Shown here one piece after another: positions 12,001-15,000 of a stretch of DNA of 34,435 nucleotides (the first letter of the stretch is position 1; every line of letters starts with the position of its first letter). Origin of the DNA: a virus (lineage: Duplodnaviria > Heunggongvirae > Uroviricota > Caudoviricetes); IMG/VR virus record IMGVR_UViG_2529293069_000011; one strand, given 5' to 3'. The position numbers were made by a program.

Positions 12001-15000
12001 AACGAGTTGCGAGAGTGTCTGGTAAGCAGCTGCCGGACCCTCCATCCAGAATGACGCAATACGTGAGCGTCGGGGATCACCATAACGACTACCATCCGCA
12101 TTGATGGATTCACCATCCCGCAACCAGACCCCACGTCCGTTCAGCTCACGTTTTTGTTCAGGCATAATCCGTCCTGAACAGGAAGGACACTGAATATAAG
12201 CCGCCTCACTTGCCAGCACAGGATCGGCAATATCACGGAAACCAGCAACCACATCGCCGCAGGGCTGAAAATACTCACCACAGTGTGGACAGGGCCAGTA
12301 CCAGCGACGGCGATCGCCACGGTTATAGAGCGACAGGATCCCCGTGGTTGGTGGAGCCTCATGCGGTGAAGTCCGTCGCCATTTCACATCCTTCACATCC
12401 CTGCCGGGGGAACTCTCCACCAGCGTCATACCACTGGACATAAATGTGGTGGTACGTTTTGAGGCAAGAGAGAAGGCATCCCCCTCACCATCAATATCTT
12501 CCGGAAAACGGTCATAATCCGTCAGCGCCACGCATTTATAATCTGATGAGGACATGATATTGACTGACGGCCAGCCGATTTTCAGGTAGTTGCCAGCAAG
12601 GAATGTTCTGTCATAAACGTTGTTGTCATTTTTGTTCGGACTCAGGCGACTGACCACTTCCGGGCTGACGCGAAACGTTCTGGCGAGTCGTTTTTTGGAG
12701 TGTTCGCGGGCTTTTTCCTCCGTCATCTGAATGATCAGCATATCCGCAGGATCGCAAATCACGTTGTAAATCACCCAGCCGTCAATCAGGCCGATAGTCT
12801 TGCCGGTTCGTGCCGGGCCAACAAATATCACTGCGTCGTATTCACGCGAGGCCAGGCAGTTCATCGGCTCAATAACATACGGTGCCACCAGCGGATCCCA
12901 CGGGACTGAGTTCCCGGCCCCCATGGGCACCCGCATATACTGAGCAACGGCATCAGCAACCCGCATTCGTCTCGGTGCGCGAAGGATATAACCTGAATCG
13001 GTTCGTGCTGCCTTTGCGGTTTCCTGATTCAGCATTACTCCTCCTGCTGTAATTCCTCCTCATCATCCGCACCTGCTTCGGTCACCCGCAGGGCTATCTG
13101 ATCGCGCAGATCATCAATAATGGACTGAACACGGCTCACAGCGGCAGGCTGCAGACCACAGTCACGTTCCAGAATATCCGGTAATGTCTCCAGCACCTGC
13201 ACGACCGCTTTTGCCCAGATGGCAAACTCCCGTCTGACATCACTGGCCGGAATGAGTTGTGCCGTTTCCTGTTCGAACTTAAGACGCTCACGTTCAGACT
13301 GATACCAGGCTTTGCGTTCATGTGGATCCATTTCGCCCTCAGCAACCGGCGGTGGTAACCCCATAAATTCAGTCAGAATATCGGTCAACCGGTATAGCTT
13401 GAGTTTGTCATGTCCACCAGCGGGACGAATGTTTTTCAGTCTTGCCACGACAGTCTGGCGGTGCAGACCAGATAAAGCCGCCAGTTGATTAATATTCAGC
13501 ACCAGGTTTTTCAACTCATGATCCATATTTCCTCCGGAGAGCTTTAAACATGCATCGTGCGAACAACTTTAAGAAAACGCGTTCGATGTCGAACAAAAAA
13601 CACTCAATTCGACATACAAAAAACAAATAACCATTAATAATCAATAAGATGCAAAGATGATGGTGGCCGATAAAAATGCAAAAACTAGCCTTTTTCCGCG
13701 ACGCTCCCGCCCCGTGGCAGGCCACCCCACCGGGAGGAGCCGTCAGCCTGAAAGCCATGACGAACGTCTGATACAGCCCTTGCATGAATGGCATCGGGAT
13801 AATCCAGAAAGGAATAGCATCGACCCACAAGAATCTGTGTGAGTGTCCTGTTTCTTCCACCCCCGCACAGGACTGGCGAGCATGAGGGACAAACCCGCGA
13901 ATCATTAGCGCGGTAAAAACCCGGTGTGCATCGTTTTTGATTATTCCCGCACACTCGCGCAGAAGGAGTTCCCCGTCGGGCTACGGTCATGGTTAATGCG
14001 GGAATACAGCGACGATACAGCGCATGATGTGTCAGGCTTGAATACCTTTATCCGTTAAAAGGGATATCAGTTAAGTTATCCCGTGTAGGGTATAAGCCAT
14101 TATCAAAGCCACTCTGTAGGGAGTGGCTTTTGTAATGGCAATAAAAAAGCCCCGCGAATGCGAGGCTAAATCCAGGTATTTTTAATGACTGGCTCTTATC
14201 TCAACGCAGCCCCTTACCGCGCGCCAGATGCTCAATATCAAGCATCAGCAATGAGATGTTTAACCATGATTCACTCCAGAAGTGAGCACCACCCTGTCTA
14301 CAGAGCCAGATGTGAAGGATGATGAGTAAAATTATCGCTATCATCGAAGGCATTGCGTCCTGATGTATTCCTGAAGCGTTCTCAGTGCTGTTTGGTCGCG
14401 GATAATTCCGTCCCGGATACCGAGAACGTTTCGTCCAGCAACTGGAGAGAGTTCGACGGTGGCATCATTGCCCATGCCGGAGGCGCTGGAGGTTTCGTCT
14501 GAGGATGGCACAGGGCATTTTCCTTTGACGAACACCCGACCACCATTATCAAGCTTGCGCCGAAGAGCATCATTTTTAGCTTTCGCATCAGCTAACTCCT
14601 TCGTGTATTTAGCATCGAGTGCATCAGCAGCACGCTGGCGCTGCTGCATGTCAGTAATGGTGGCGGTCGCCTGCTTCAGCTCACTGACTTTTTTATCACG
14701 CTGTTCTTTATAGGCGATGGCGTTATCACGGTAATGATTAACCGCCCATGACAGGCAGACGATGATGCAGATAACCAGAGCGGAGATAATCGCGGTTACT
14801 CTGCTCATTGTTGCCCCCACAAACAGACTTCACGCTCAATCTCGCGGCGAGTCATCAGCCCTTTCCATTGCTTACCGCCAGCGTATGTCCAGCGCCGTAG
14901 CTGATCACATGCGCCTTTGATATCACCCTGGTTTATTTTGCGAAGAAGCGTCGATGTTCTGAAATTACCAGCGCCCACGTTGTAAACGAACGAGTAAAGA

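Follow-up and report, generated by a model that had tools for sequence, protein, structure and literature searches.

In phage lambda and its relatives, the cohesive-end site (cos) can be divided into a few elements whose sequence and spacing have been described. The 16-base-pair (bp) cosN of lambda is partly two-fold symmetric (PMC9026076). Among lambda-like phages, conservation extends to the left half of the overhang, the CG pair beside each nick and cosQ, while positions 7-12 of the overhang are reported to be naturally variable and functionally tolerant (PMC4669245). Downstream of cosN, lambda carries the AT-rich segment I2, with poly-dA/dT, at bp 18-50 (PMC4856287), followed by the R3 sequence, which lies at bp 50-65 in lambda and at bp 48-60 in phage N15 (PMC9026076). 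Here, we describe a locus in IMG/VR virus record IMGVR_UViG_2529293069_000011, assigned to the Caudoviricetes (the window, meaning the whole stretch of 34,435 nucleotides that was analysed). Judging from the sequence, positions 13527-13741 on the minus strand are very probably a cos site belonging to a lambdoid E. coli prophage, lambda-type in its organization and used for cos packaging. Deposited phage genomes already contain identical or homologous sites, and the assignment is a matter of ordinary annotation.

Evidence for a lambda-type cos site

The identification as cos derives from homology to the record termini and annotated cohesive ends of closer relatives, and not from the match to lambda. 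With the segment from cos to the small terminase gene (terS) as query against 50,697 phage records, 16 records were matched, and a 101-nucleotide query centred on cos matched 35 phage records. The records of cdtI (AB285204.1) and Tritos (OV696610.1) open exactly at GGGCGGGAGCGTCGCGGAAAAAGGCTAG, of which the first 12 bases are GGGCGGGAGCGT, the 5' cohesive end predicted for the window. They end in ...ggcctgccacg and ...cccctgccacg, respectively, and both maps were thus opened at the equivalent of the junction between window positions 13713 and 13712. In the record of LLS (PQ299149.1), the depositor's feature at 1..12 is a "5' extended single-strand cohesive site GGGCGGCGCGCT", found at the homologous position, and the record ends in ...GGGTCCTcccggcagggtgtcctgccacg. 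The record of Hafnia phage yong2 was opened at about the other nick (end ...GGGGGCAGCGACA, start CGCGGG). For the window, a minus-strand nick is predicted between 13713 and 13712 and a plus-strand nick between 13701 and 13700; we number cos from +1 at 13712, counting leftwards.

When virion DNA is assembled, breaks tend to fall at its physical ends, and irregularities at the site are found in two virion-derived records. The record of mEp460_4F5 (LR595868.1) starts 5 nucleotides before the predicted nick, with 3 nucleotides of cosN absent (GGGCGGGAGCGCGG vs GGGCGGGAGCGTCGCGG; 1-20), probably an artefact of assembling the cohesive ends. In Ayreon (MF807953.1, 745-895), about 135 nucleotides interrupt cosN between +3 and +13. 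This insert copies an internal piece of the terS coding sequence (LETLPDILERDCGLQPAAVSRVQ) and is probably a chimera produced by scaffolding or gap filling at the physical ends; it gives rise to an annotated 'putative late gene regulator' open reading frame (ORF). The cos site of Ayreon was left unmapped by its authors (PMC5764929).

Dozens of phages and prophages share a conserved segment of about 80 bp around cos, equally far from terS in each. When relatives are compared, there is little change in cosQ, the spacer, cosN or the I2-like tract as the identity of the small terminase subunit (TerS) drops from 100% to 42%, and the downstream cosB diverges along with TerS. This is the expected division of labour, in which cosN and cosQ are recognized by the large terminase subunit (TerL) and cosB by TerS.

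How closely does the site resemble that of lambda itself? The initial annotation had placed a cos-like sequence in reverse orientation at 13696-13721, upstream of the terminase genes, and it is present there: the minus strand reads cctgccacg/GGGCGGGAGCGT/cgcgg (slashes mark nicks; full reverse complement cctgccacgGGGCGGGAGCGTcgcgg), and the lambda junction reads ggttacg/GGGCGGCGACCT/cgcgg. It had also been called a close match to lambda, to be checked by alignment. Compared with the lambda 20-mer ACGGGGCGGCGACCTCGCGG (ACG...CGCGG), 16 of 20 positions are identical, and this is the top ungapped site on both strands of the window; the likeness is nevertheless modest, being confined to ACG/GGGCGG and T/CGCGG. 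A score of 16/20 was reached by 2% of 200 block-shuffled windows (p about 0.02), and the pattern of shared bases occurs once against 0.01 expected, although that pattern was designed after the match had been seen. The left half GGGCGG and the CG beside each nick are as in lambda, and two-fold symmetry extends over 8 of the 16 positions of cosN including the flanking CGs (13699-13714), versus 10 of 16 in lambda. Mismatches within the overhang are found at positions 7, 8, 9 and 11 only. As all of these lie in the half reported to be variable, the pattern of matches is what would be expected of a lambda-type cosN. Taken on its own, however, the similarity to lambda is thin evidence for cos. A full-text literature search for the 12-mer GGGCGGGAGCGT returned unrelated papers only, and Rfam, at gathering and at permissive thresholds, gave no RNA family at or near cos.

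Cos-type packaging, as proposed initially, is supported by the neighbouring proteins as well as by the cdtI and Tritos termini and the LLS cohesive end. A Pfam scan of TerL recovered GpA_ATPase (PF05876; 9e-72, profile positions 2-247 of 247) and GpA_nuclease (PF20454; 2e-85, profile positions 1-294 of 294), that is, a gpA-type large terminase with both domains near full length, encoded next to cos, and the portal protein belongs to the lambda family. TerL is 25% identical to lambda gpA (BLAST, 3e-19) and 88% identical to TerL of cdtI. For TerS, the identities are 100% with PhiR40_1, 63% with LLS, 48% with Gifsy-2, 44% with Fels-1 and 42% with cdtI. BLAST gives no alignment between TerS and lambda Nu1, and hhalign with a six-sequence DUF1441 profile pairs TerS residues 9-57 with the winged helix-turn-helix residues 2-52 of Nu1 at a probability of only 10% (E 0.003). 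Membership of TerS in the Nu1 family by sequence was rejected on these results and on its Pfam assignment to DUF1441; TerS nonetheless probably works like Nu1. Searches by sequence for solved relatives of TerS or TerL in the PDB found none.

The TerS start codon is at +187 from the nick, compared with +191 in lambda, in agreement with the distance anticipated in the initial annotation. Eleven sequences, lambda and the window included, range from +160 to +202, and LLS has +130. Sites for cosB and IHF had been anticipated in the flanking ~800 bp (13530-14340); candidates were indeed found, but only within the 174 bp of 13527-13700, and the other side holds cosQ at 13735-13741. Positions +13..+46 read CGCGGAAAAAGGCTAGTTTTTGCATTTTTATCGG, and the first 21 of these bases hardly vary across six relatives. 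Next to this, a CAYCAYCA box occurs at the same distance in all relatives compared that have a DUF1441 TerS, and its position and conservation suggest that TerS may bind there (13656..13666). The IHF-like site at 13639..13651 is the sole site with at most one mismatch between cosN and terS, and cdtI, Tritos, phi458 and 4F5 have a perfect IHF consensus at the same place, as read by eye with no scan. Further downstream, the arms of a perfect inverted repeat, 14 bp apart, bracket an invariant TGTTTTTTGTTC block. The Gifsy-2 counterpart of this repeat is GTGTCGAA/TTCGACAC, with the outer base altered on both arms, and the two arms may represent candidate TerS half-sites of the R2/R1 type. A repeat scan that cleanly recovers R3, R2 and R1 in lambda found no three-copy R repeat here, and the lambda R-sequence CGTTTCC is absent.

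Several points weigh against reading this locus as a cos site. The nick positions are predicted here from sequence and homology, not from mapped ends, and the record starts of cdtI and Tritos may themselves come from homology rather than experiment; for Tritos, a literature search returned nothing on how its ends were set. Similarity to lambda is weak (overhang 8/12, TerL 25%, TerS and Nu1 without a BLAST match). For the 12-nucleotide overhang alone, 8/12 does not exceed chance, other places in the window scoring 9/12, and stringent local alignment (Smith-Waterman) of the window with lambda cos plus 60 bp on either side does not pick the site, for which reason our argument does not depend on the resemblance to lambda. 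The candidate TerS sites are short, and their conservation is only partial. The third base of cosQ deviates (G-to-C), and natural cosQ variation has been stated as not apparent (PMC4669245). Finally, the nearly identical prophage Sp3 is defective and was not seen to be excised, replicated or packaged (PMC2669165).

Assuming that the locus is a lambda-type cos, packaging might proceed as follows. The DUF1441-family TerS would bind cosB, the segment that separates cosN from the TerS start codon; IHF would probably bend the DNA at +62..+74, and TerS would place the gpA-type TerL on cosN. TerL would then nick both strands 12 bp apart, leaving the 5' cohesive end GGGCGGGAGCGT, and packaging would run from cosN via terS, terL and the portal gene, leftwards in window coordinates. 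Packaging would end once the following cos is reached, and the second nick made there would require cosQ, which lies 22 bp upstream of the nick. The sequence anatomy, the protein families and the homology to record termini or annotated cohesive ends are observed directly, whereas the nick positions, TerS binding and IHF binding are inferred by analogy with described systems, as would be any continued function of the window copy with its altered cosQ. The prophage can then be oriented and the ends of the virion chromosome predicted, with GGGCGGGAGCGT as the left end and terS packaged first. Cos rather than headful packaging also bears on generalized transduction and on a possible helper role for cos-bearing satellites.

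The cosQ base change and rival explanations

The cosQ-like element of the window reads GGCTCCT. Its distance from the nick is 22 bp here and in all close relatives, and 23 bp in lambda. The sequence GGGTCCT is found in lambda and in the other 13 aligned relatives with a cos core; Gifsy-2 is more divergent and has ggtactc. A scan of IMG/VR gave, among the matches listed (at least 120 loci), a third position that was G in 111 and C in 9; the nine loci with the C allele all have the cosB type of the window. The comparable C carriers constitute one haplotype, with no difference from the window between -150 and +700, and 16 other haplotypes of the same cosB type retain G. With the 101-nucleotide query, no phage record matched at 99% or more, except for a 39-nucleotide Tritos match that ends short of cosQ. 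The three full-length best matches, PhiR40_1, PhiR47_1 and PhiR55_1, are 97-98% identical, and PhiR40_1 has GGGTCCT. The C-allele haplotype also occurs beside head-gene regions only 93-94% identical to those of the window, so that it could have moved between phages.

What does the altered base mean for function? Without cosQ, bottom-strand nicking of lambda at termination is prevented, and the loss is lethal. The window copy may thus be a cos by descent that is no longer fully functional, in which the G-to-C change impairs the cosQ-dependent second nick at termination and the site can start but not finish packaging, the prophage signal being in decay. We regard this as possible, though doubtful. 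In its favour are the rarity of the C allele in the comparisons above, its restriction to a single haplotype, the GGGTCCT of PhiR40_1, and the presence of the same haplotype in the defective O157:H7 prophage CP-933K/Sp3. Against it, the terminase is so distant from gpA (25% identity) that the stringency of lambda cosQ may not carry over, the packaging genes of the window are full length with an intact portal, unlike in EDL933, and the haplotype next to divergent head-gene regions points to possible movement between phages. Termination by the window copy, given the cosQ change, is therefore unproven. Tentatively, GGCTCCT could be either a termination-defective allele fixed in a prophage lineage or a sign that a terminase distant from gpA tolerates a change at cosQ position 3. 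The former would amount to a new kind of lesion grounding a prophage of the O157:H7 CP-933K/Sp3 type, and the latter would relax the definition of cosQ. Either way, this natural change offers a ready-made test of cosQ stringency for a terminase that shares only 25% identity with lambda gpA.

Returning to the assignment as cos, the same DNA could instead be coding, as minus-strand ORFs at 13685-13990 or 13516-13905 span the site. Some phage records annotate ORFs over cos, as hypothetical proteins or, in Ayreon, as the putative late gene regulator mentioned above, and the cos-spanning ORFs have weak PHROG matches to families of unknown function. We consider a coding role very improbable nevertheless. 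RefSeq/PGAP has nothing annotated at the equivalent of cos in EDL933, the ORFs have no Pfam matches, the record ends of cdtI, Tritos and LLS fall within the would-be ORF, and the Ayreon ORF passes through the chimeric fill that copies part of terS. Moreover, conservation is at the nucleotide level and ends at cosB and TerS-type boundaries. The cos-spanning ORFs were rejected as real genes on the missing Pfam support, the empty RefSeq interval and the chimeric Ayreon ORF.

That the resemblance to lambda cosN is a G+C-rich coincidence, with the true site elsewhere or packaging by headful, would fit the overhang score of only 8/12 and the failure of stringent local alignment to select the site, but is scarcely credible given the ~80 bp conserved at constant distance from terS, the termini and annotated cohesive end of relatives that fall exactly at the site, and a TerL of gpA type rather than headful type.

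Features of the locus and the surrounding DNA

The late region lies on the minus strand as a lambda-type head-packaging module that is read from right to left in the window.

Table 1. Position and basis of cos elements and neighbouring features, from right to left in the window.
Feature	Position	Strand	Basis or remark
Holin ORF	15302-15562	minus	
Lysozyme	14805-15302	minus	
Rz	14341-14820	minus	followed by a gap of ~800 bp before terS
Conserved 50-amino-acid ORF, function unknown	14201..14353	minus	phrog_11822, E 4.5e-35
Intrinsic-terminator-like hairpin with T tract, strong	14148..14167	minus	downstream of lysis genes, upstream of cos
cosQ-like element GGCTCCT	13735..13741	minus	6/7 to GGGTCCT
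cosQ-cosN spacer ccCGGTGGGGTGGCCTGCCACG	13713..13734	minus	strongly conserved within family
cosN, predicted 12-nucleotide 5' cohesive end GGGCGGGAGCGT	13701..13712	minus	lambda-like; record termini of relatives
cosB, predicted (174 bp, cosN to TerS ATG)	13527-13700	minus	
I2-like A/T-tract spacer AAAAAGGCTAGTTTTTGCATTTTTATCGG	13667..13695 (+18..+46)	minus	CGCGGAAAAAGGC..TTTTT invariant in six relatives
R3-like candidate TerS site CCACCATCATC	13656..13666 (+47..+57)	minus	CAYCAYCA box
IHF-like site AATCAATAAGATG	13639..13651 (+62..+74)	plus	12/13 to consensus WATCAANNNNTTR
Perfect 8-bp inverted repeat ATGTCGAA (13608-13615) / TTCGACAT (13586-13593)	13586..13615 (+98..+105, +120..+127)	minus	repeat search
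terS, small terminase, 163 amino acids	13035..13526	minus	Pfam DUF1441; PHROGs phrog_141, 2.7e-77
terL, large terminase, lambda gpA family, 700 amino acids	10933..13035	minus	Pfam
72-amino-acid ORF	between terL and portal ORF	minus	
Portal protein, lambda family, 526 amino acids, intact	9216..10796	minus	PF05136, 5.6e-82

The portal ORF, whole in the window, is represented by two coding sequences in CP-933K of EDL933, which indicates that decay has gone further in the O157:H7 copy than in the window prophage.

The ~800 bp flank (13530-14340) had been taken to be noncoding, which is only partly right. In EDL933, RefSeq has no annotation in the interval corresponding to window 13527-14200, but the 50-amino-acid ORF at 14201-14353 is annotated there, as it is in several phage records. 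This ORF overlaps the end of Rz and is common to P22-like phages, e.g. Sf6 and epsilon34. Unannotated mosaic DNA extends for about 400 bp beyond cosQ. A mosaic joint is located at ~13845-13850: lysis and early-side DNA rightwards from ~13850 occurs in numerous other E. coli prophages, and 13845-14139 in Stx phages, unlike the DNA on the cos-terminase side. Within this stretch, 13913-13990 on the minus strand, the first 26 codons of ORF 13685-13990, matches PHROG 6954 'Rz-like spanin' (E 1.3e-7) and is probably what is left of another lysis cassette in the spacer between Rz and cos. Another mosaic joint is found at 20835, where identity to CP-933K of EDL933 ends. Much further to the right, 32369-32427 on the plus strand is a full-length match to the Rfam family Lambda_thermo, the cIII thermoregulator (88.5 bits), and the sole Rfam match in the window; the prophage thus keeps a lambda-like cIII region.

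Comparison with known systems

The window shares with lambda the order cosQ-cosN-cosB, a 7-bp cosQ some 22-23 bp before the nick, and the arrangement ACG/GGGCGG......T/CGCGG with CG at both nicks. An A/T-tract spacer, a box at the R3 position near +50 and a terS start near +190 are likewise common to both, as is an IHF-type site, located at +62 to +74 in the window and, as I1, between R3 and R2 in lambda. Both have a gpA-family TerL and a lambda-family portal. In contrast, the two differ at overhang positions 7, 8, 9 and 11, the cosQ-nick spacing is 1 bp shorter here, and the window has C instead of G at cosQ position 3. Its TerL is only 25% identical, its TerS belongs to DUF1441 and not to Nu1, and CGTTTCC is missing.

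Phages cdtI and Tritos have the same 12-mer GGGCGGGAGCGT, and their first 39 bp are identical to the window at 37 (cdtI) or all 39 (Tritos) positions. Their spacer is also 22 bp long, that of cdtI being 1 base off the window's, and cdtI TerL is 88% identical. They differ in a TerS that is only 42% identical, in a cosB that departs from about +40, and in a canonical GGGTCCT at cosQ. LLS and the mEp213 group have a DUF1441 TerS with 61-63% identity, the same layout of cosQ, spacer and cosN, and an annotated cohesive end (LLS) at the homologous position, whereas their 12-mer is GGGCGGCGCGCT and the terS start at +130 makes for a shorter cosB.

The terminase-cos modules of Salmonella Gifsy-1, Gifsy-2 and Fels-1 have the same TerS family (Gifsy-2 48%, Fels-1 44%). 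The cosB of Gifsy-2 contains the T-rich block of the window together with an inverted pair, GTCGAA/TTCGAC; its cosN and cosQ sequences are more divergent. Gifsy-1, listed in the literature as a lambda-like phage with a 12-nucleotide cos, differs from lambda at positions 8, 9 and 11 (PMC4669245), which are three of the four positions at which the window differs.

Among complete E. coli genomes, none spans 80% or more of window 12000-34435. The closest counterpart for the late region is CP-933K of EDL933, or Sp3 of Sakai. It is 100% identical over window 13640-13800 (161 bp), the C allele of cosQ included, and 99.0% identical over window 1-20835 with the same gene order. The window prophage is set apart from it by a different early region beyond 20835 and by its intact portal gene.

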